Source: Euglena gracilis
Taxonomy: Eukaryota
Length of the DNA: 64,000 nucleotides
Assembly: GCA_039621445.1 (NCBI GenBank)
Contig: CP154954.1
Coordinates: 30,384,395-30,448,394, forward strand
Reading direction: 5' to 3'
Below, piece after piece: positions 2,450 to 63,350 of the stretch (the first letter of the stretch is position 1; every line of letters begins with the position of its first letter). The notes below the pieces were generated by a model, which was not told where the DNA came from, did not search any database, and saw only the letters and a list, made by a program, of their open reading frames with translations. Made by a program: the position numbers and the translations under genes.

Positions 2450-2521
2450 GCCCCCGTGGTATAGCGGTCGTGTGGTTAGCGTGCGTCCGGTAGGTCGCGG
2501 GTTCGAATCCCGCCGGGGGCA
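2450..2521 (+). pseudogene. tRNA-like element (degenerate; nominal anticodon TGC/Ala)
   Basis: Perfect acceptor stem GCCCCCG/CGGGGGC, perfect T-arm GCGGG-TTCGAAT-CCCGC, A-box TGGTATAGCGG and a T5 run downstream. D and anticodon stems pair poorly and U33 is absent. Confidence 0.7.
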
Positions 2522-4456: not shown

Positions 4457-5971
4457 AGTGCCAAACGGTAGACGGGGGGGGGGGTAGTGGGTAGTCTGCC
4501 GACTAGTCGGCCGACTAGTCGGCCGACCAATTGGGTAGTCGGCCGACTAATTGGTCGGCCGACTAGTCGGCGGACCAATTGGGTAGTCGGCCGACTAGTC
4601 GGCCGACTACCCACTCTAATGTACTAACGGGTCAAAACCGCCGACTTTTAAGCCCCCCCCCTGGGAAAAAAATTTTGTCTAAATCACCTCAACACTAGTC
4701 AAAACCCACCCAAATGGCTCCAGAACCCCCCAATCGGGGGTGAATATGCAAAACAATTGGGGGAAAATGTCCATTTTGGGCCACTTTTGACAAAAGTACA
4801 CCTCTCCCCATTGAATTTTCAATATAAGTCAAAATTTGCACAAAAAAAGGGTCTTATCCCTCCAAGTCTATTGCCAACATAGAAGGGATTTTGTTTTTTG
4901 AGGGGGGGGGTGCGGGGGGGGCGGAGGCCCTCCCGCCTATGCCAAAGTAAGCCACAAAAACGACTTAGCCCCCGAGTATGTTGCCAACACAGAAGGGATT
5001 TTGTTATTTGAGGGGGGGGGTGCGGGGGGGGCGGAGCCCCCCCCCGCCTATGCCAAAGTGAGCCACAAAAAGAATTAGGCCCCGAATATGTTTCCAACAC
5101 AGAAGGGATTTTATTATTTGAGGGGGGGGGAGTGCGGGGGGGGCGGAGCCCCCCCCGCCTATGCCAAAGTGAGCCACAAAAACGACTTAGCCCCCGAGTA
5201 TGTTGCCAACACAGAAGGGATTTTGTTACTTGAGGGGGGGGGCCGGGGGGGGGGGCGGAGCCCCCCCCGCCTATGCCAAAGTGAGCCACAAAAATGACTT
5301 AGCCCCCGATTATGTGGCCAACACAGAAGGGATTTTGAGAATTGAGGGGGGGGGTGCGGGGGGGGCGGAGCCCCCCCCGCCTATGCCAAAGTGAGCCACA
5401 AAAACGACTTAGCCCCCGAGTATGTTGCCAACACAGAAGGGATTTTGTTATTTGAGTCTCGGATTGGGGTGGAGGGGGGAGTTTTCTGCCTCTCGTGATG
5501 CAGAACGCAGATTGCAGATTGCATTTCTAAAGGATTTTAATGTAATCCCTGTTTCATCATTGGTTTTTTACCCCTCCGGACCCCCATCAAGGGCCCACCG
5601 ACCCCCCACTGACCAAAGATTTCCATCTGGGGGTGTTTATTTAGGCGTAAGACACTTATTTGGACCCATCCGGACCATTTCCGGGTGATTTGGGCCCGCC
5701 ACAGACCATTTTTATGACCGCCGACTAGCCACCGACTAGTTTCCATTGGATTTTGTTCATGGGGGGGGGGCTTAAAAGTCGGCGGTTTTGACCCGTTAGT
5801 ACATTAGAGTGGGTAGTCGGCCGACTAGTTGGCCGACTACCCACTACCCCCCCCCCCCCCCTGTCTCGCCGACTAGCTACCGACTAGGCCTAGTCGGTGG
5901 ACCAATTGGGTAGTCGGCCGACTAGTCGGCCGACTACCCACTACCCCCCCCCCAGTCTACCGCCTTGCGCC
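4457..5971. mobile_element. Non-autonomous Mutator-like DNA transposon (9-bp TSD)
   Basis: TSD CTCTTTGAG at 4448-4456 and 5972-5980. Long imperfect TIRs with GGCCGACTAGTC subterminal repeats and an internal ~120-bp tandem array (4870-5455). Empty site in the mirror arm near 27115. Confidence 0.85.
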
Positions 5972-10486: not shown

Positions 10487-10977
10487 GTGGAAGAAAAACC
10501 CCATTGCATCAAAATCAACCAACCCAGGTCAAAATCAAGGTTTCCCCGTTTGATTTTGATAAATTATGCTGAATTCCATCATTATTGAGTTTTGCAAACC
10601 CCTGCAAACTCAAGCGCCAATCTCAGAAAAAACTGTTCCAAGCGCTTGCAAGCGCTCACCAAATACAACATTTTCCCTTAAAACCAAAGGAAAAATGCAG
10701 AAAAAGCTTAAAAACATGCTAAATAGACCCAAAATCACCCTTTGGGAATACCGAGCATCACTCAATCTCTCTCTCCTTGCACACCCAAACCATGGGCGCC
10801 CTAGGAGAGGGAATTTTAATGGAAATCTTTAGAAAGCCTTAAAATTAGAGCTAAACCGCCCTTAAAACGGCCTTCTAAAAAGAAAAATCTCCGCCGCCCG
10901 GCCTCTGATACGAAAACTGTGTCCAGAACGCCGGTTCGGGCGTGAAGCCGTGTTCCAGAACGCCGGTTCGGGCAGCC

Positions 10978-12490
10978 TAAATTTATAATTTAATTTTTAG
11001 CTAATAATTCTATATTAAATATAAGGATTTTATATAACTAAAAAATATGAATCTATAAAATTGTTATTTATATATATTTTTCAACAAATATTGGATTTTT
11101 TGTTGATCAAAAAATCTGTAATATATATATAAAATAACTATTATATATAAGCGATACGCGCTCTCGCTATTGAAAACATAACGAATATCCGTTCAGGATA
11201 CCCTCATCACTACCCCAATATTCCCCACTGTTTGAAATCTCCCTTTTCTGGTTTATTTAGATATTTGATCCAGAATTTCCTACTATAACGGAATATTAAT
11301 TACTGTAAGCAAATTCTACAATTAATTCATAAATAATCTGTGATTCTGAAATAAAATAATTAAATATGAATTAATACCAGAATTTCCTACTATTTCGGAA
11401 TATTTGATCTACCTAGAAAAATCCCTATCAAACGACTAATTAATCTGAATCACAGATTATGAATAGATTAAATAGTAATCTGTTGTAGAATTTGCTTATT
11501 GAACGGAATAATCCCATCTCTAGGAAAATTTGGATCAAACGACTAATTAATCTGTGATTCATGATCTGAAATTCAGAAATAGGAATTTGATCCAGAAAAT
11601 GCTTGAATTCGACCTACGGAATCTTTCAATCAAATTCTGGTATAAATTCCTATTTAATTGATTTCTGTTTCAGATTCTGGATTATTTAGGCGGTAATTCC
11701 AGATTTTCCTTGTGATCGAGATTATGATTCACACAAGCAAATTCTGGATCAACCGCCTAAATATTCGGTTCCTAAATTTATTTATGAGTTAAAGCCGAAT
11801 TTATATTGAATTTTTCCTACGGTCGAAATCAATCAAATTTCGGATCTTTGGTCCTTAAATAGTATTTTGATCCAGTATTTGCTTGTGTCCGCTGATGTCA
11901 AATTCTACTAGGAAATTCTAGATCAAATCGCTATTTAATTCACAAATAATTAGAAATAGGGATTAAATAGTCGTTTGTTGAGAGATTTCCTTATGTCCAG
12001 GAGTTCTAGAATTTATAAGCAAATAATGGATCAAACGACTAAATAATCCACTCACAAAGAATATGAAGAGATTAAATAGCAGTTAATTGAGAATTTTCCT
12101 TGATCTCAACCTACGGAATTCTACAAGCAATTTTCTCAATTAAATACTATTTAATCCAGAATCACAGATTCTGAAATAGAAATAGGAATTTGATCTAGAA
12201 TTTCCTATCTAGAATTCTCTATAGAAAAATCTCTAACAAAATGCTATTTTTGCTTCTGTAGATTCATATTCTGGATTAAATAGTCGGTAATACCAGAATT
12301 TGCTTGTACGAATCTGAATATCGATCACAAGGAAAATCTCTAACAAATTGCTAAATAAATCCGAATCAGAATCACAGACAAGATTAAATAGTAGTTAAAG
12401 CCAGATTTTCCTTATGTCCAATCAATCAGGAATTTATAAGCAAATTCCAGAACAAACTACTATATAATCCAGAATCACAGATTCTGAATT
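10978..12490. repeat. AT-rich island: ~270-bp leader plus array of 12 ~107-bp inverted-repeat/spacer units
   Basis: Half-site consensus ~ATTAAATAG-tcgt-TTGAT-CCAG-AATTT-gCTTG alternates with its reverse complement, separated by ~21-nt segments. Absent from the mirror arm. Confidence 0.85.
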
Positions 12491-12789
12491 AAGCCGTGTT
12501 CCAGAACGCGCGGGCGTGAAGCCGTGTTCCAGAACGCCGGTTCGGGCAGCCCGAACCGGCGTTCTGGAACACGGCTTCACGCCCGAACCGGCGTTCTGGA
12601 CACAGTTGTTGAAACCGTGGATTAGGGGCTCTGGCTTCACGCCCGAACCGGCGTTCAAGGAATAACGGCCATTTTCGCCCTAAATACCCAGTTTCTGAAC
12701 ATTTTTGGGCATTTTTGGGATCCTTTGGGCTCATGGCCATGTCGATCGGCCGATTGAAGTTTTCATCCGTCTGATGCCAGGTTACCCAT

Positions 12790-13290
12790 CAATCGAAAGG
12801 TTTTTTTTCAGAATTACAATTTGGAAAAAAATTTTGGTTGGACCACCCCTAGGTTTTTTCAGATACACGGTTGGGAAATTTTGGCTGGACCCCCCCCCAG
12901 ATTTTTTCAGATTTGCAATGCCGAATTTTCGGTTGGACCCCGCTGGTTTTTTTTTTTCCAGAATTATGGTTGGGATTTGATCCCCCCTTTTTTCAGAATT
13001 CCGGTTCAGAGATTTTGGCTGGGTTTCTTCATAAACACGGTTGAAAAAAAAATTGGCTGGAGCCCCCCCAGGGTTTTTCAGAAGTATGGGTGGGAAATTT
13101 TGGCTGGACCCCCCTTGGAATTTTTCAAAATTGTTGGGAAATGTTAATTACAGTTGGGAAATTTTGGCCCCCCTGGGTGTTTTCAAAATTGGTTGGACCC
13201 TCCCCTGGGTTTTTCAGAATTATGGTTAGGAAATTTTAGCTGGACCCCTTGGGTTTTTTCAGAATTACGATTTTTGGACCCTTTTCGCAA
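12790..13290. repeat. Degenerate ~40-bp tandem repeats (TTTTTCAGAATTACGGTTGGGAAATTTTGGCTGGACCCCCC)
   Basis: About a dozen diverged units; mirror at ~19850-20340. Confidence 0.75.
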
Positions 13291-13563: not shown

Positions 13564-13641
13564 GCCCGAACCGGCGTTCTGGACACCGGTTCGGCGCAGA
13601 AATTTCTGCGCCGAACCGGCGTCCAGAACGCCGGTTCGGGC
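13564..13641. repeat. 78-bp near-perfect palindrome centred on GAAATTTC
   Basis: GCCCGAACCGGCGTTCTGGAC...GTCCAGAACGCCGGTTCGGGC with one mismatch. Same building block as the palindromes at ~12511-12610 and 20530-20651. Confidence 0.9.
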
Positions 13642-14532: not shown

Positions 14533-17500
14533 CCGGGGCCCAACACCAATCGGGACTCCGCCAAAAAGACACGCCAGAGTCGGGAGTCACAAGCCCCCAC
14601 ACCTTCTATACCCCACACAGGTCTGTCTCAGGAAATGGCGTTGGTCTCCCTGTCCCCCGCACCATCCTCCCCAGCAGCAACGACGCTGCAACCCGGCCTG
14701 CCGTCCGACCTTGGTCCGGGGTTTTCCTTTGCTTCCCATGACACCTGCCCCTTTGCAGATTGCCCACGCTCGCGGACAACCATGACCCGCTCTCAGGTCC
14801 TATATCGTGTCTCTCAACACGTCGCCGCCGGACGATCACCCACCCCCGAATTTTTGCGAGCTACTGCGACCACGACTTGCGCCGTCTGTCGGACCTTGCT
14901 ACGGGCAAGAGAACGTTGCCAATGCCCCCACCAGGGTGCCTCGGCCGTCCACGCTTCTTCACACCCCTCCGTCCCACTCCCCTCTTCACCGCACCAACCC
15001 CTCGGGAATGGCACTCCTCTGTCTCTCCCGTGCCCAGATATGCAGCCCGATCTGCAGGTGGTTCTCTCCACCAACTGCCCCACTCTTCGCCGTCTCCCAC
15101 TGCCAAGTCGTCACGCCATTTGTGACGCCCTTGCATCCTCCATTCAGACCTTTCTCCAGGCCCAAACCTGGGAAGCTCTACACCGCCTGTTCATTTTTCC
15201 GAAACTCGTTCTTGGTGCCCCTCCCAAAACCTCGTCTTCCCATCAACACACATTGCATTGCCTCCTGGAAAAGAGACTGGCACAGTGGCACGCAGGAGAG
15301 TTTGCCGCTCTGTTTGATCCGCTTCGCTCTGACAGACGGCGAAAGCGGCCCACCACCCGCGCCAACCCCTCTGGCTCTACTTCTGACTCTGTGGCACGTG
15401 GTCTTATGGACCGGGTGCGCGGACTCGTTGAAGAAGGGGCCCTCGGCAAGGCCGTGGACGCTCTCACCTCTTTGCCCCTGGCATCGCCCGGGGATCCAGC
15501 AGTGATGCAGAAGCTCCTTTCGCTCCATCCACATGGGTCTCCATTACGAGCCAGTTTGCCGCTGCCTGGGGCAGGCAATTCTCCACAAACTACTGACTTC
15601 AACTGGTCTTCAATTGTGCAAGAAGTTGCAGCCTCTTTCCCCCGTGGCAGCGCCCCCGGCCAATCTGGTCTCCGTCCACAACACCTTCGGGACTTGTTGG
15701 ACCGTGAGGCCGGGACAGGCCCGCTACACACAGCCTTGGGGTCCCTGGCTCAGAAGGCCTGGGAGGGCTCTTTGCCAGCAAAAGCCTCGATCATTTTTGG
15801 TACGTCAAACCTGATCCCACTTACCAAAAAGGATGGCGGTCTACGGCCGATCGCCGTGGGGGATTGCCTGCGGCGCTTCATTGGGAAAATGCTGTTGCGA
15901 CACACGCAGTGCAAAGCGGAAACGTCTCAGCTGTTCCCGCAGCAATTGGGAGTGGGGGTGCGCTACGGTGCGGAGACAGTCGGGTTGGCGGTACAGGCCG
16001 CACTGGCGTCTCTGCCAGTGGATGGCGATTGGGTCGTTTTCCAGGCCGACGTTTCCAACGCCTTCAACACCATTGATCGATCCGCGTTCCTGCAGGCATC
16101 CCTGGACCTCTGCCCGTCCCTTTACAACTGGCTCCGATTCTCCTACGGAGAAGACGTCCCACTTCTTTGCCAGGGTGACGTGCTGTGTCACAGCAGGACC
16201 GGTGTCCATCAAGGGGACACATGTGGGCCCATTGCCTTTGCCTTGGGTCTCCATCAGGCCCTGCAACAGGCTTCGGCCAATTTGCCCAACACGGTGTGGC
16301 AGGCATGGTACTTGGACGACGGTACTGTCATCGGCCCTGCCGTTGATGTTCTGCCTTTCACGGCTTCTCTGGCCACGGCACTTGGCAGCGTTGGGCTCCA
16401 CCTCAACCCCTCCAAGTGTGCCTTATGGGGACCAGGTGTACCCTGTGCCACTCCGAAACCCCCGGCTCTTCAGATCCTGCCTCCCGACCACCTTGCACAA
16501 AACTTCCCGGTCACCCCATGGGGACCGGGCAGTGGCATCCTGTGCCTAGGGGTACCTTGCGACTATCCTGGTGACTGCACCTTTTCTGACACCACGTGGG
16601 CCAAGGCATCCGAAAAATTTCAAGCTACCATCTCGCGCCTCCAACAACTGCCGGATCCCCAACTCCAACATTGTTTGCTGCGCAACTGTCTGGATGGCTG
16701 CCGCGTCACGCACCTTCTGCGTCAGACAAACATTTCCTCCGGGACGCACAGTGTGCAAGTGATCTCCGACTCCATCCGGAGTGCTGCCTGTGACATTGTG
16801 GGGGCACCCCTGTCTACCTTGCATTGGAAACAAATCACCTTGCCGTGCAATAAGACAGGGTGGGGCATCACAGACCCCCAGTTGGAAAGACCAGCTGCCC
16901 GTTTGGCTGCTTGCGTGGGTTTTTCCCAACGAGCGCCCGGCTTCAATATCCCTCCGCCCTGGCGCATGCTCCCGCTACCAGATACCATCCCCGTCGCCAA
17001 ACTGGCTCGTGACACCTTGGGCCCGCACAGCGAACCATTGGCTTCCTGGATCGCCAACCCTTCTTCCTTGGCCTGTTCCACCCCAGATCACTCCACTCAA
17101 TCGTGGTGGGCCGAACGTTTCCACGCCGTTCGCGTGGCAACTTTGGAGGACGGTGCACCTCTTCGGGACATTGCCAGGCTTCGTTGCCAGTCCTCTGCCT
17201 TCCTTCAAAATTGGATGACCGTCTTACCATCCAGGTCGGTGAATACCGTCCTAGCTCCGGACGAATACAGACTGCTTCTACGCTTCTGGACTGGCTTACC
17301 CCTGATCCCAACAACGGACATGCTTCTGTGCCCCCTGTGTGCTGAGGCAGTCGATCCATTTGGCGATCACCTCCTGGCTTGCAGAAGGAATGGCATAACA
17401 GAAAGGCACAACTGTGTTCGTGACGCCATTTTTGACCTGTGCCAACGCGCAGGCATCACTCTTCGCAAAGAACAGGGATGCGAGGGTGGCACCCGTGACG

Positions 17501-18114
17501 CTGATCTCCTCCTCCTGGGGTGGAACAAAGGGAAGCATCTCGCTGTTTGATGTCACCATTGAACACCCGCTGGCCCCATCACGGTGGCCTCTGAACTTGA
17601 CCCGAGTTCAGCGTACTCTACCAGACGCTGAAATGCACAAGAGAACACAAGCTGAAGAACGGTGCGCCCGCCACCAGTGGGAGTACATTGGGGCTGCATT
17701 TAACCCCTGGGGGTGCACATGACCGGCAGCCTCCAAACTCCTACGCGATGTCCTACGCCTCGCGACCAATTCATATTCTGGAACAGCCAAACAACGAAAA
17801 TTTCAGGAATTGACCGAAAACTTGGCCATCACACTGGCCCGTGCAGTTGCACGGCAGCTGCGGTTGGCCGAAAGAGCCACAGATCGTATGATCCTGAACT
17901 CGTAAGGTGAAAATGCTCCCCGTTGCACCAGCCTTCCGGAGCCACAAAGCCGGAGAACACCGCGCATGCACACTTCACACCTCTCCACCCATCACTCTCT
18001 GCTTGGGCTTTGCCCTTGCTCTCACCGCTCGACCCACACTCCTTCGTTGTATATAGCCTCGCACCCTCGAACACTCAAAATCCAGTAGGCTGTGCCACTG
18101 GTCGGTGGATTCGG
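14533..18114 (+). mobile_element. CRE-like non-LTR retrotransposon family 2, near-complete, in IR1 spacer
   Basis: 971-aa ORF 14635-17550: N-terminal Cys/His cluster, RPIAVG, DVSNAFN, QGDTCGP, YLDD, CPLC..DHLLAC, RHN, RDADLL. Frameshifts at ~17548 (DVTIEHP) and ~17720. Family-B tail at 18087-18114. Confidence 0.92.
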
Positions 18115-20529
18115 GGGGGGGGGCAGTTGCCCAAGGCTTTCCCCGCGGGCACCTCTCGCCGAGGGGTGGGGGGCAATCTTCTCCCCAAGGCCTTCCCCTC
18201 GGGGGGGGGGGTGATTTTCATCTATCACCGAAAGGATTTTTGGTGATAATGGACCCTCCATTCCCTTCACGGTTGGGAATACCGTGGGGGGGGGGGTGGG
18301 GCTGGTTTTTATCCACTCAAAAAAAAGATTTTTTTGAGTGGTGTTGGACCCCCATTTCCTTTCACGGTGGTGAGAACCGTGGGGGGGGGGGAGGTGGGCT
18401 CGGTGTGGTTGGAATAGAATATATGGCCTAATAGATTCCTCCACACCGTTCCGCCACTTATGCACGATCTCGAACAATGTCATCGCAATTGCGTTGCAAA
18501 AATTCAAAGTGTTTTTCATTCCCATACCAAGGAAAGCGAGAAGGAGGGGGGGGTGAAACCCCCGACTTTCGTCGCAAGGGGGGGAGTGACAACCGTTTGA
18601 GGTCGACCGCCGGGCGGCGGAGATTTTTCTTTTTAGAAGGCCATATGATTATTGGCGGTTGGAAAGGATGTAATGCCGAAACGGCATTACCAGGCCCATG
18701 TAAGGTAAGCGCCTTCATGGAGCCTGGACAGCACAGGAGACTCATACACAATACACTGGTAGCGGAAATCGCTAAACAGCCCTGGGATGAACCTGGGTCT
18801 GTGTCACACACTCTGCGCTCTGGATGGAAACATCCAAGAGCCCTCCCCACCCGCCACCCCCTATACCAATGGCCGTGCGGACGGAATCCGTCTGCATGAG
18901 GTAAGCGCCTCTTATCACGTCGTGAAGGAGCTACTGCTGTGAAGGCCTTGGCAGCCGGGAAACCTGGCAAGCCGCTAAGTGACACACAGCACACAGCGCG
19001 CACGCCGTAATAATAGGCCAAGTTGTCACTTTTCGGCCCTAAGGCCCCTTAAGGCTGCCAGACAGCAAAAATTCTGTTCTGGCCTAATCCAGCCCCCCCT
19101 CTCCTCCCTCCTTTCCCCCAAAGCTGTCGCCGGCAGTCGGTTTTGTAAGTAGGCTTTTGTTTCCTAGTGCGGATATGACCGCCTAGGAGCCCTATCCGGG
19201 TATGACCAGGATAGGAGCCTGCCCCCCCCCCTTCCACCCCTCTCCCCTCGGGTTTTCAGCGAATACGCTTGACCAACCCCGCGTGCCTTTGGCACACCCA
19301 AAGTGGGTGTATGGGACACTTTGTCAGGAAACCTGCCAAGGCCCTTTTCCCACAGTGTGCATTTTCACACCTCACCTAAGCCGAAACGGCTAATAGGTAA
19401 CCGCGAAACGCGGCTAACCTTTTGCGCGTTTTTTGGCTTGGGTGGATGCCACTTGACGACCGTTTGAAACCGTGTATTGGGGCTCTGGCTTCATGCCCGA
19501 ACCGGCGTTCTGGACGCCGGTTCGGCGCAGAAATTTCTGCGCCGAACCGGTGTCCAGAACGCCGGTTCGGGCGGGAAAACGGCGTCCTGGGGACCGAAAA
19601 TGAAAAGTGCCAAAAAGTGTCCAAAATGGTTTGTAGACATGAGGCAATCATATCTGAGCACTTTTTGGGGGGGTATTTGGCCAGAAATTGGGGTATTTTG
19701 TGCAACAATTTCCATTTGGCCAAATCTGGGGATTTTCTGAAATAGAATACCATGCAGCAGGGCTGAAATCTAAGGCCATCTAAAACCCTTGAGAAGGGTT
19801 ATCGATCAAGGGGCAACATGGCAGGTGAACAGTGGATTTTGGAAATTGCGAAAAGGGTCCAAAAATCGTAATTCTGAAAAAACCCAAGGGGTCCAGCTAA
19901 AATTTCCTAACCATAATTCTGAAAAACCCAGGGGAGGGTCCAACCAATTTTGAAAACACCCAGGGGGGCCAAAATTTCCCAACTGTAATTAACATTTCCC
20001 AACAATTTTGAAAAATTCCAAGGGGGGGTCCAGCCAAAATTTCCCAACCATACTTCTGAAAAACCCTGGGGGGGCTCCAGCCAATTTTTTTTTCAACCGT
20101 GTTTGTGAAGAAACCCAGCCAAAATCTCTGAACCGGAATTCTGAAAAAAGGGGGGATCAAATCCCAACCATAATTCTGGAAAAAAAAAACCAGCGGGGTC
20201 CAACCGAAAATTCGGCATTGCAAATCTGAAAAAATCTGGGGGGGGGTCCAGCCAAAATTTCCCAACCGTGATTCTGAAAAAACCTAGGGGTGGTCCAACC
20301 AAAAATTTTTTCCAAATTGTAATTCTGAAAAAAAAACCTTTCGATTGATGGGTAACCTGGCATCAGACGGATGAAAACTTCAATCGGCCGATCGACATGG
20401 CCATGAGCCCAAAGGATCCCAAAAATGCCCAAAAATGTTCAGAAACTGGGTATTTAGGGCGAAATTGGCCTTTATTCCTAAAACGCCGGTTCGGGCGTGA
20501 AGCCAGAGCCCCTAATCCACGGTTTCAAC

Positions 20530-20651
20530 AACTGTGTCCAGAACGCCGGTTCGGGCGTGAAGCCGTGTTCCAGAACGCCGGTTCGGGCGGCCGCCCGAAC
20601 CGGCGTTCTGGAACACGGCTTCACGCCCGAACCGGCGTTCTGGACACAGTT
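20530..20651. repeat. Perfect 122-bp palindrome (empty site of the AT-rich island)
   Basis: 61-bp arms with no loop, centred on GCGG|CCGC at 20590/20591. Confidence 0.92.
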
Positions 20652-24071: not shown

Positions 24072-25564
24072 GAAGACGGTGGTGGGGCGAACCGAATCCA
24101 CCGACCAGTGGCACAGCCTTCTGAATTTGTCAGAGTTCGTGGGAGGGGAGCTATGTACAGATGGGCGAGGCCCATGGGCAGCATAGGTATAAGCGGTGGC
24201 GGAAGAGGGGAGAGGAGAACGGTCGAGGGTGAGGGGGACTGCGTGTGCTCGAGGTGGTCGGGCGGGTGCCCGGCTGCCGGGTTGGTGAGGTGCTCCGAGG
24301 GCGCCCCAGTTTGTGCTGGCGCTCTCTCGGTGGCGCTCCTTCTGTGGCGGGTGCGTGCGGTTGGGTGGCCTTGTGGGCCACCATTCGGCGTCTGTGGTGT
24401 TTGTGTTCCCTGGCTGTTGTTGTTGTAGTTGTTGTTGTTTGTTTAACGGAGCAGGTGCTTGGGCTGCAGGAGGTGGAAGACCTCTCGTAGCAGGGCGATG
24501 GCCACGTTCTGATAAATCTCTGCCTCCTTGATTTCTCGTTCGGCGCCCTGTTGCCAGGACGAGGCGCGTTTGGCCACTCGGCCTAGCGTCTTGGCTGTTT
24601 CGGGGCCCATGCCACCCCATGTCCCCAGGGCGAACGGCGTGAAGCTCCACCCTGCTTGCTGGCAGGGGATGGTGTACTTCTGCTTCTTGGCCTCCTCCCT
24701 TCTCTTTAGGAAGGACCTCCAGCGCTCGCGGGTGGCATTCTGTTCTGTGGTCTGCCATCCGTGGCAGACGGTGACGTCCAGTGCCGTTGGCTTTCCCTCA
24801 GACCAGCAGTCAAGTAGGAGGTCCGCCGGGCGGAGGTGACTGTCGCGGGCCGTCGGCAGGGAAACTTCCTTCTGTACCCGCTGTCCGATGTTGGACAAGG
24901 TTTGAAATAGCGCGTCCTGTACAGCGTTGTGGCGGGTTGCGAAGTTGTTCCTCCGGCAGCAGAGGAGGTGGTCGCCCTCCTTGTCCAGGGGTTGGCCGCA
25001 GCCTGTGCACGGCTGGCTGATGTCCGTCAGCACCGGGAGGCCCAACCACCATTTTAGACCCGGGGTATAGTCTTCGCTGGAGAAGGTGGTATGAGAGTTG
25101 TTCGAGGGGCAGGCCGCCATCCAGCCGTGTCCGAAACCCGTGGCCTGTTCCAGCAGGCGGTTCTGGTCCCGGGGCCGAGCCTGGTCCACTAGGTCGTCCA
25201 TTGCCTTCTTGCCCAGCTCGTGATTCCACCACTTCTGCTTCCGCGGCTCCTGGTCCGCGGACGCGATTCGCTGTGGGTTGTTAAGGAAGGTGGTCACGGT
25301 GGCATGGTTGGCACCCAGCCTGCCCCTGAGGTCGTCCAAAACGGGTGTGACCAAGGTAAGCTGCGGGCTGACTGCGTAGTCCGGCACTCCCACCCGCCGG
25401 GCCCCGTCTGAGTAGAAATCTGCGAGGCAGGAAATCCTTGCCGCGGGTTGGGTGTATGACGGTATGCGAAGGCCGCAGCCGCCACTTGACAGGGGCAGCG
25501 AGGCCTGTGTCCGCTGTTGCGAGTTTAGCGCCGTGCCCAGTATCCCAGTATCAGTATCAGTGCC
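24072..25564 (-). mobile_element. 5'-truncated CRE-like element (family 3) inserted antisense into family 1
   Basis: 14-bp TSD CAGCCAGGATCAAC at 24058-24071 and 25565-25578. ORF 24443-25393 has CTGC..DHLLCC, RHN and RPADLL..LDVT..K. Family-B tail at 24076-24119. Empty site near 7517. Confidence 0.92.
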
Positions 25565-28979: not shown

Positions 28980-29051
28980 TGCCCCCGGCGGGATTCGAAC
29001 CCGCGACCTACCGGACGCACGCTAACCACACGACCGCTATACCACGGGGGC
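28980..29051 (-). pseudogene. Mirror copy of tRNA-like element
   Basis: Reverse complement of 2450-2521. Confidence 0.7.
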
Positions 29052-62751: not shown

Positions 62752-63350
62752 AAAAGAAGAAGAAGAAGAAGAAGGGAAGAGAAGAGAAAGAAGAGAAGGA
62801 GAAGAGAAGAGAAGAGATAGGAGAAGAGAAGAGAAGAGAAGAGAAGAGATTGCCTTCTGGCCTTTCTCTCGTGAAGAAAGTAATATAATTAATACTACTA
62901 ATAATGTTAATATACTATATAATATCATAAATATATCTAATTAATATAATATTATAATTATAATATAATAGTAATATAATCTAATATATAAATATAACAT
63001 ATAATACTAGGAACGTGATATAGATTTCCTAATATCAATACTATATATATATATCTAACTCTATAATCTCAATATTAATGTATATACATATTCTAATAAT
63101 GTTGTATATCTATACTTTAAGTCATAATAATATAATATGTCATTATAAATCCTCTCCTCGCCTCTACTTTCCTCTCCTACCTCTATGTATACTCTCCTCG
63201 CCTCTCCAATAAATTATCCTTAGTAATCCCTCATAGTATAATATAATATAGTATATACCATCCCCTCATACTCTCTAATAATCAGATCACTCTAATATAA
63301 TCATGCTATAATGTAATATAATAGCCTATTTATAATATATGTATAATAGA
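62752..63350. repeat. (AAG)n/(AAGAG)n microsatellite plus AT-rich low-complexity island in intron
   Basis: Sharp composition shift; lies between direct repeats at ~62085-62275 and ~63445-63655. Confidence 0.8.

Follow-up and report, generated by a model that had tools for sequence, protein, structure and literature searches.

Here we describe an AT-rich island of 1,513 bp (positions 10978-12490) in a stretch of 64,000 nucleotides of the Euglena gracilis genome (assembly GCA_039621445.1, contig CP154954.1), hereafter the window, whose numbering is used throughout. A large palindrome carries the island in just one of its arms, where a small GC-rich palindrome is interrupted by it at the centre; the island consists mostly of a regular array of inverted half-sites belonging to a very abundant repeat family. 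We read it as an arm-specific, secondary insertion of the organism's own abundant AT-rich repeat DNA, with a mitochondrial-type source as the candidate, so that it would resemble a nuclear copy of mitochondrial DNA (NUMT) and would be inert where it now lies; to this reading as a whole we give a probability of roughly 0.45. In kind, the island would be an insertion of organelle-type or repeat DNA at a fragile palindrome.

Positions 1-32636 of the window form a palindrome of 32.6 kb, with arms 98.6-99.7% identical that enclose about 4 kb of unique sequence (14535-18600). The DNA of the window is of eukaryotic nuclear type, with LINE-like reverse-transcriptase open reading frames (ORFs) and two tRNA-Ala copies, and LINE-like reverse transcriptases are the only proteins recognized in it by the protein atlas and Pfam. 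The flanks of the island align at 98.7-98.8% to the other arm, which is devoid of it: there, a perfect small palindrome runs uninterrupted through 20530-20651, and the alignment of the two arms places the island exactly at the centre of that palindrome. Furthermore, 41 bp at the left of the island (10937-10977) recur with 100% identity at its right (12511-12551). One-arm presence, central position and flank duplication had all been proposed in a first-pass annotation made from the sequence alone, and the comparison of the arms sustains the three of them. On the assembly sequence, the island has nuclear DNA on both sides and an empty homologous site, as is the case for NUMTs and for nuclear copies of plastid DNA (NUPTs). 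The components of the insertion site are the following:

10902 to 10977, forward strand: left mini-arm, made of two subrepeats of about 32 bp, the last 41 bp (10937-10977) being the left copy of the duplication.
12491 to 12551, forward strand: second copy of the left mini-arm, with a deviant partial subrepeat (12491-12510) followed by the perfect 41-bp duplicate (12511-12551).
12511 to 12620, no strand assigned: complete mini-palindrome right of the island, with 37-nt arms (12511-12547 and 12549-12585) that are 100% complementary.
20530 to 20651, no strand assigned: empty site in the second arm, a perfect and uninterrupted GC-rich mini-palindrome of 122 bp, built of 32-bp subrepeats.

Read from left to right, the first arm shows the left mini-arm with its centre, the island, the left mini-arm a second time, and lastly the centre with the right mini-arm. 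The GC-rich inverted arms that bracket the island, 76 nt long and 91% complementary, are built of 32-bp subrepeats; in the alignment of the arms, bases 12491-12551 have no counterpart, and the centre of the mini-palindrome at 12511-12620 differs by a few bases from that of the other arm. A related GC-rich mini-palindrome, carrying the CCAGAACGCCGGTTCGGGC motif common to the island flanks, is found at 13564-13641 and mirrored at 19495-19572; given this recurrence, the target palindrome belongs to a dispersed family.

The island has a GC content of 0.284 (0.234 in its leader, 0.295 in its array) against 0.52-0.61 in the adjoining kilobases and about 55% in the surrounding DNA. Its edges are sharp when the sequence is read, and the drop amounts to 27 points with respect to every other repeat in the window. 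It had been described beforehand as abruptly AT-rich and non-coding, and so it is: the largest stop-to-stop frame wholly inside it has 57 amino acids, and no coding potential was found. A search of the whole window with Rfam at gathering scores gave no match in the island and detected only the two tRNA-Ala genes, while over the island itself, at E up to 10, only sub-threshold matches to generic hairpins of microRNA type were obtained; no tRNA or rRNA fragment appeared in or beside the island in these scans. The island lacks terminal inverted repeats of its own, and transposon ends, of Helitron type or other, were considered and rejected, none being seen on reading. It is organized as a leader of 273 bp followed by 12 units of about 107 bp, and the two small hairpins formerly claimed for the leader are present on reading:

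10978 to 11250, no strand assigned: leader, 273 bp, 23% GC, free of half-sites, with small hairpins at 11083-11107 and 11150-11168.
11139 to 11215, no strand assigned: GC-richer leader element, with the highest summed contig depth of the stretch in the DNA runs and almost no RNA.

The half-sites of the array were found by an iterated position-weight scan, their core being taken as 31 nt. There are 23 of them, of about 31 bp each, in strictly alternating plus and minus orientation; 22 score at least 15 bits, compared with a mean of 0.005 at that score in shuffled arrays. Scanning both strands of the 64-kb window returned no half-site of at least 15 bits elsewhere, and no further copy of the island was found in it. 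The plus half-sites start at 11251, 11358, 11466, 11573, 11680, about 11776, 11853, 11961, 12070, 12176, 12274 and 12382, with successive spacings of 107, 108, 107, 107, 94-96, 77-79, 108, 109, 106, 98 and 108 bp. The spacing is therefore 106-109 bp in eight of 11 intervals, a head-to-tail periodicity like that of a tandem satellite, and autocorrelation peaks at lags 107 (z = 8.1) and 108 (z = 5.9). The first-pass annotation had followed the array through a CCAG mark, which corresponds to the plus start plus 19: 11 of its 12 marks are reproduced exactly, and the sixth lies at about 11795 instead of about 11807. Its period of 106-109 bp holds for the eight intervals just mentioned, but in the new register the exceptions are three short intervals and not two short units.

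Loops measure 25-26 nt in 10 of 11 units and 16 nt in the remaining one. Linkers measure 19-21 nt in nine of 10 intervals, the tenth spanning the damaged unit 6, in which the right arm is trimmed to its inner 20 nt or so and the linker is gone, with about 31 bp missing. The linker motif GAATCACAGA, already noticed in the first reading, occurs six times in the window, always within island linkers (four forward, two reversed). Mean column identity among units is 62%, short of that of a homogenised satellite; because the units are only this much alike on average, Tandem Repeats Finder is blind to the array, and it reported none of period 54 or 107 for the island. The units are listed below with their folding z-scores, obtained by folding each one as single-stranded DNA and comparing it with shuffles:

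11251 to 11357, unit 1: half-sites at 11251 (+) and 11303 (-); no stable hairpin (z = -0.45).
11358 to 11465, unit 2: half-sites at 11358 (+) and 11410 (-); mismatched arms, 16/31 (z = +0.37).
11466 to 11572, unit 3: half-sites at 11466 (+) and 11517 (-); no stable hairpin (z = 0.00).
11573 to 11679, unit 4: half-sites at 11573 (+) and 11624 (-); good hairpin (z = -5.74).
11680 to 11775, unit 5: half-sites at 11680 (+) and 11731 (-); best hairpin of the array (z = -8.06), then a linker of about 9 nt.
11776 to 11852, unit 6: degenerate, left half-site retained (z = -0.93).
11853 to 11960, unit 7: half-sites at 11853 (+) and 11905 (-); hairpin (z = -4.36).
11961 to 12069, unit 8: half-sites at 11961 (+) and 12013 (-); hairpin (z = -2.98).
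12070 to 12175, unit 9: half-sites at 12070 (+) and 12121 (-); hairpin (z = -4.87).
12176 to 12273, unit 10: half-sites at 12176 (+) and 12218 (-); 16-nt loop, no stable hairpin (z = -1.39).
12274 to 12381, unit 11: half-sites at 12274 (+) and 12325 (-); mismatched arms, 16/31 (z = -1.19).
12382 to 12490, unit 12: half-sites at 12382 (+) and 12434 (-); hairpin (z = -4.54), last linker included.

The abundance of this sequence in DNA sequencing runs bears directly on its provenance. Fourteen DNA runs, all of one organism label, contain between 0.28 and 0.43 of the 31-mers sampled from the island; the 11 studies behind them are all dated 2025 and similar in size, and possibly belong to one campaign. 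Six further runs with small shares (0.06-0.14; organism labels A, B, C and D) were not used as evidence, and no RNA run was among the matches listed in the 31-mer run index. When a 2.3-kb stretch (island and flanks) was compared with short contigs, 11,003 matched in DNA run X1 and 9,036 in DNA run X4; in X1, 3,582 of them are at least 99% identical, 4,535 lie at 95-99% and 2,886 at 90-95%. Summed contig depth, which is not a copy number, reaches 10^5 to 10^6 over island and flanks alike, and attains 1.53 million (X1) and 1.04 million (X4) over the leader element 11139-11215.

This family exists, moreover, in many arrangements. Joints linking island units in other orders were numerous (15 listed and 200 more), as were rows of other letters between units (12 listed and 340 more), and at 10 of 30 listed island positions another letter accounts for at least 90% of the X1 depth. 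Since the abundant copies differ at these positions, the island locus is a slightly diverged copy of abundant sequences; the best 31-mer share in any run, 0.43, corresponds to roughly 3% divergence, although the family is very abundant. The source family can be described as alternating half-sites of about 31 bp with a 107-bp period, present in many recombined arrangements and giving RNA from both strands.

These data change the meaning of the capture first envisaged. The island had been regarded as foreign DNA, with a viral or plasmid array among the candidates; its membership in a very abundant family in the runs of one organism label does not support that idea, and turns a foreign capture into a capture of the organism's own abundant repeat DNA. 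No phage or plasmid record matched the island by BLAST, and exact-pattern scans, for which a 22/26-mer of the leader and a 20-mer pattern of the right arm were used, returned 0 matches in viral contigs and 0 in prokaryote genome contigs. Three pattern matches in metagenome contigs, where another metagenome scan gave 0, were discarded as chance, since they share only about 21 bases with the island; no viral or plasmid origin emerges from contig scans that hold nothing beyond chance 20-mers.

The transcripts, in turn, point to the family rather than to the locus. Two RNA libraries were read, a size-fractionated one (X24, 8.3 million records) and a complementary-DNA (cDNA) RNA-seq library (X21, 12.9 million records), from which 3,029 and 20 reads, respectively, matched the stretch. 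In X24 the depth is 16-220 reads per direction over 11447-12447, on both strands, with 0-9 over the leader and 0-9 over the flanks (7.9 and 1.2 over the leader element 11139-11215); in X21 it is 0 in 19 of 20 bins across 10985-12524 and 0.45 in the remaining one. Because leader and flanks are equally abundant in DNA, the X24 signal over the array is not DNA carry-over. Of the 3,029 X24 reads, 2,763 lie on the locus only in part, with 78% running on into unlike sequence, and the reads carry the letters of the abundant copies (143/150 and 236/238 at 11724; 78/82 and 128/131 at 12144), from which it follows that this RNA belongs to the family and not to the island locus. The layout of the X21 and X24 reads disclosed no preferred or defined RNA ends.

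It could be argued that the island is nonetheless a working array at its own locus, either the precursor of a multi-hairpin RNA or a phased array of protein-binding sites, and its very regular geometry (all but one of 11 loops at 25-26 nt, all but one of 10 linkers at 19-21 nt), its 22 strong half-sites with shared conserved positions and the presence of the family in a size-fractionated RNA library would be in line with it. We hold this to be highly improbable. The folding of units 4, 5, 7, 8, 9 and 12 does surpass that of shuffles by far (z between -3.0 and -8.1), but units 1, 2, 3, 6, 10 and 11 fold no better than shuffled sequence (z from +0.4 to -1.4), one unit bears the scar of a deletion, the sister arm does without the island altogether, and the reads carry the letters of other copies and have no defined ends.

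Pairing within units tells the same. It had been proposed that the arms co-vary unit by unit, and the three examples cited are real, but they are the best cases: across the array, cognate arms are identical at 21.3/31 positions after reverse-complementing, against 20.7/31 for non-cognate ones (permutation p = 0.25), and in the variable core at 6.6/12 against 6.4/12 (p = 0.38), the own right arm being the best partner for only two of 11 left arms. In eight of 11 units, one and the same half-site position has C in one arm and G in the other (five C/G and three G/C, p = 0.034), which in a hairpin is a mismatch and thus argues against selection for perfect pairing. The compensatory pairing per unit that characterizes structured hairpin-RNA arrays is not found, and a working multi-hairpin RNA locus, as once suggested for this island, finds no support when pairing is not maintained and the RNA comes from other copies. 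The island is probably inert at its locus and devoid of function there, with private base changes, half of its hairpins spoiled and RNA that stems from elsewhere in the family.

What the arms and linkers do preserve looks like the trace of another process. The occurrence of the linker motif in both orientations resembles flip-flop inversion between inverted repeats at the DNA level and, together with the opposed C/G position, suggests inversion or recombination between inverted half-sites in the source family. The segments between the arms are likewise less free than the variable spacers of the first description, since eight of 12 loops fall into three related classes (units 1-3; units 4, 6 and 9; units 8 and 12). 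The helical phasing attributed to the array dissolves as well: the maxima of AA/TT power, found at 9.7, 10.8 and 11.9 bp (z = 8.7, 13.9 and 12.0), are the 11th, 10th and 9th harmonics of 107.3 bp, so that the 10.8-bp signal follows from the 107-bp period and is not separate evidence. The short intervals have deficits of about 11, about 31 and 9-10 bp, three cases being too few to test for whole helical turns.

A CRISPR-like array was also considered. Like CRISPR arrays, the island has an AT-rich leader, after which conserved segments and less conserved ones take turns in a regular manner; unlike them, it has repeats of alternating orientation, related "spacers" and a eukaryotic nuclear context with LINE-like elements. 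This candidate was rejected on the alternation of the 23 half-sites and the kinship of eight of 12 loops.

Where, then, would the family reside? The source is most likely organellar and of mitochondrial type. We favour it for the sharp contrast in composition and the want of transposon hallmarks, for the failure to find further copies in 64 kb packed with repeats, and for the recombined arrangements and the RNA found in the size-fractionated but not in the cDNA library. According to those parts of the published accounts that were available, the mitochondrial DNA of E. gracilis is a pool of recombination-prone linear molecules of 1-9 kb that carry repeats, terminal repeats and gene fragments, and its mitochondrial mRNAs are not polyadenylated (PMC4700960; PMC4806707; PMC8130358). 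The family, being AT-rich, non-coding, abundant, prone to recombination and present in many arrangements, would suit such a pool, in the same partial accounts (PMC4700960; PMC4806707; PMC8130358), as would its transcripts from both strands without poly(A) and blocks of repeats of kilobase size, which would fit molecules of 1-9 kb. This likeness is one of description, for a literature search found, in the text available, no printed sequence or unit size of the Euglena mitochondrial repeats, nor of the plastid variable-number tandem repeat (VNTR). A precedent in Euglenozoa is Diplonema papillatum: the consulted portion of the report counts more than 1,400 NUMTs there, among them a tandem array in which a 68-bp non-coding mitochondrial stretch is repeated in 164 copies (PMC10161547).

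With NUMTs and NUPTs in general, the island shares a sharp, organelle-like composition between nuclear flanks, a non-coding repeat content, an empty paralogous site and the absence of transposon hallmarks of its own. It departs from them in the flank duplication of 41-58 bp and the placement at a palindrome centre, both atypical, and in a 31-mer share of only 0.28-0.43 with any run.

Several considerations weigh against an organellar insertion. A 31-mer share of at most 0.43 corresponds to about 3% divergence, more than a young copy of a uniform organelle genome should show. Summed depth is no pointer to an organelle, since it is as high over the GC-rich nuclear flanks as over the island. Transcripts of both strands that lack poly(A) are known from AT-rich nuclear satellites as well. 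Had the other arm lost the island by deletion between the 41-bp direct repeats, the picture would be the same as after an insertion in this one. Finally, no record bridging either island junction was among the matches listed, the junctions being those of the assembly.

Part of these considerations would be accommodated by a nuclear family, in which the island would be a satellite rich in AT or else, in a foldback-type transposon with the GC-rich subrepeat arms as its ends, the middle domain; the other arm would then either be an "ends only" form or have had its middle removed when the 41-bp direct repeats recombined. Foldback (FB-type) transposons have long inverted ends made of short subrepeats, and a middle that is variable or absent. 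Indeed, the island is bracketed by 76-nt inverted repeats of 32-bp subrepeats, that is, by long terminal inverted repeats built of subrepeats, around a middle with an array of about 107 bp, and the sister arm presents an "arms only" form. The same mini-palindrome family recurs at 13564-13641 and 19495-19572, and a foldback-like element with subrepeat ends, a 9-bp duplication and its own 110-112-bp array lies in the same window (4457-5971). The similar summed depth of flanks and island, the 28-43% of 31-mers shared with any run, as expected of diverged dispersed copies, and the RNA from both strands fit equally well.

Against this nuclear origin stand, in the first place, the 27-point GC drop relative to all other repeats of the window, the middle being wholly different from the arms in base composition, and the lack of any other copy or half-site in the 64 kb. 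The structure, furthermore, is left arm, island and full palindrome, not end, middle and end: a complete palindrome follows the island in place of a single end, and no short target duplication was seen outside the arms on reading. A homogenised satellite would be unlike units that are 62% alike and in which Tandem Repeats Finder reports no array. On balance we judge a nuclear family less likely than the organellar source, yet a strong rival to it.

A plastid origin would make the island a nuclear copy of the euglenid VNTR region near the 16S rRNA gene. The plastid VNTR unit of E. gracilis measures 54 bp, and the half-period of the island, about 53.5 bp (31 + 25.5, or 31 + 20), comes near it; the AT-rich composition would also agree. 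In the portion of the report available, the VNTR of two euglenid plastid genomes lies between trnL(CAA) and rrs (PMC3534033), and near-identical tandem units beside these genes, as given there, have no equivalent here: the units are 62% alike, and neither the island nor its borders yielded a tRNA or rRNA fragment. In addition, near-identical units at one plastid locus cannot give hundreds of alternative joints and of letters between units, and a uniform high-copy plastid genome predicts a 31-mer share near 1, not at most 0.43. We deem a NUPT improbable.

Could the assembly itself have created the island, by misjoining organelle or satellite reads at a hairpin-prone site? The want of a bridging record among the matches listed would allow it; palindrome centres are error-prone, and the differences between the arms include many homopolymer-length changes typical of noisy long reads. 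Two clean junctions and a duplicated flank within one contiguous record are, however, hard to obtain from chimeric reads, and the island has private variants with respect to the abundant copies, as expected of a real, separate copy. To such an artefact we give very little credence.

Palindromes can extrude hairpins or cruciforms that are then cut. For the insertion that we favour, a break would have occurred at the centre of the small GC-rich mini-palindrome and would have been repaired by joining in one fragment of abundant AT-rich DNA, the left mini-arm being duplicated during the repair. The left mini-arm could have come to lie on both sides of the island if one hairpin-capped end was opened at a distance from its tip, or if replication slipped between the 32-bp subrepeats; this step is uncertain, since the distal subrepeat of the second mini-arm copy departs from what simple unfolding of a hairpin predicts. 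A capture at a cruciform break had been put forward from the letters; the placement and the duplicated left mini-arm make break repair at a palindrome centre a reasonable proposal, in which only the word "foreign" finds no support. We infer insertion in one arm rather than loss from the other.

The family could also be thought of as a dedicated functional module. It would be an end, replication or recombination module of multipartite linear mitochondrial chromosomes, with half-sites as protein or recombination sites and class-specific 25-nt loops, transcribed on both strands, as short variable cargo of non-polyadenylated RNAs, possibly an evolutionary cousin of the guide-RNA cassettes of kinetoplastids; should this be true, the nuclear island would be a fossil snapshot of that module. 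In Trypanosoma brucei, the guide-RNA cassettes of minicircles are flanked by inverted repeats. The parallel consists of AT-rich euglenozoan organelle DNA in which short inverted repeats bracket short variable segments, several per kilobase; in the island the loops have only 25-26 nt and fall into related classes, and what we note is a resemblance, membership not being claimed. For Euglena, the part of the account available (Dobakova et al. 2015, PMC4700960) reports no system of editing. We consider such a module a long shot.

If the organellar reading is true, the locus offers a clean case in which a break at the centre of a palindrome was patched with repeat DNA from an organelle, and the sister arm shows the state before the event. 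Short-read data cannot assemble this repeat family, of which the island keeps about 1.5 kb in one contiguous piece; such a piece would aid in reconstructing the repeat-rich organelle or satellite DNA of this organism. Whichever its compartment, a family that is abundant, made of strictly alternating half-sites and represented in a size-fractionated RNA library merits description.

Beyond the island, the arms of the large palindrome differ by other private blocks, five of kilobase scale in all (4457-5971, the island, 24072-25564 and two smaller ones in the second arm). The block at 4457-5971, restricted to the first arm, is a foldback-like transposon with a 9-bp target duplication and long inverted ends of short palindromic subrepeats; its internal tandem array has units of 110-112 bp, each with a G/C-run palindrome, a period near the island's 107 bp in a GC-rich (55%) composition. 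The block at 24072-25564, found only in the second arm, has 1,493 bp, 62% GC, a 14-bp duplication and an ORF of 316 amino acids without Pfam match. Private insertions with ordinary duplications of 9 and 14 bp indicate that the arms had time to collect insertions.

A second AT-rich island, at 62878-63350 (13-30% GC in 200-bp windows), lies beside a GAGAA-type microsatellite. It lacks the half-site motif, is not similar to the first island and matches nothing in Rfam, and may be another organelle-type or AT-rich insertion. The centre of the large palindrome carries a LINE-like reverse-transcriptase ORF of 971 amino acids (14635-17550), and identical tRNA-Ala(TGC) genes are located at 2450-2521 (+) and 28980-29051 (-), one per arm. 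Just right of the island, at 12790-13130 and in both arms, repeats of about 45-50 bp (T-run, CAGAAT, GGTTGG, C-run) can be recognized by eye.

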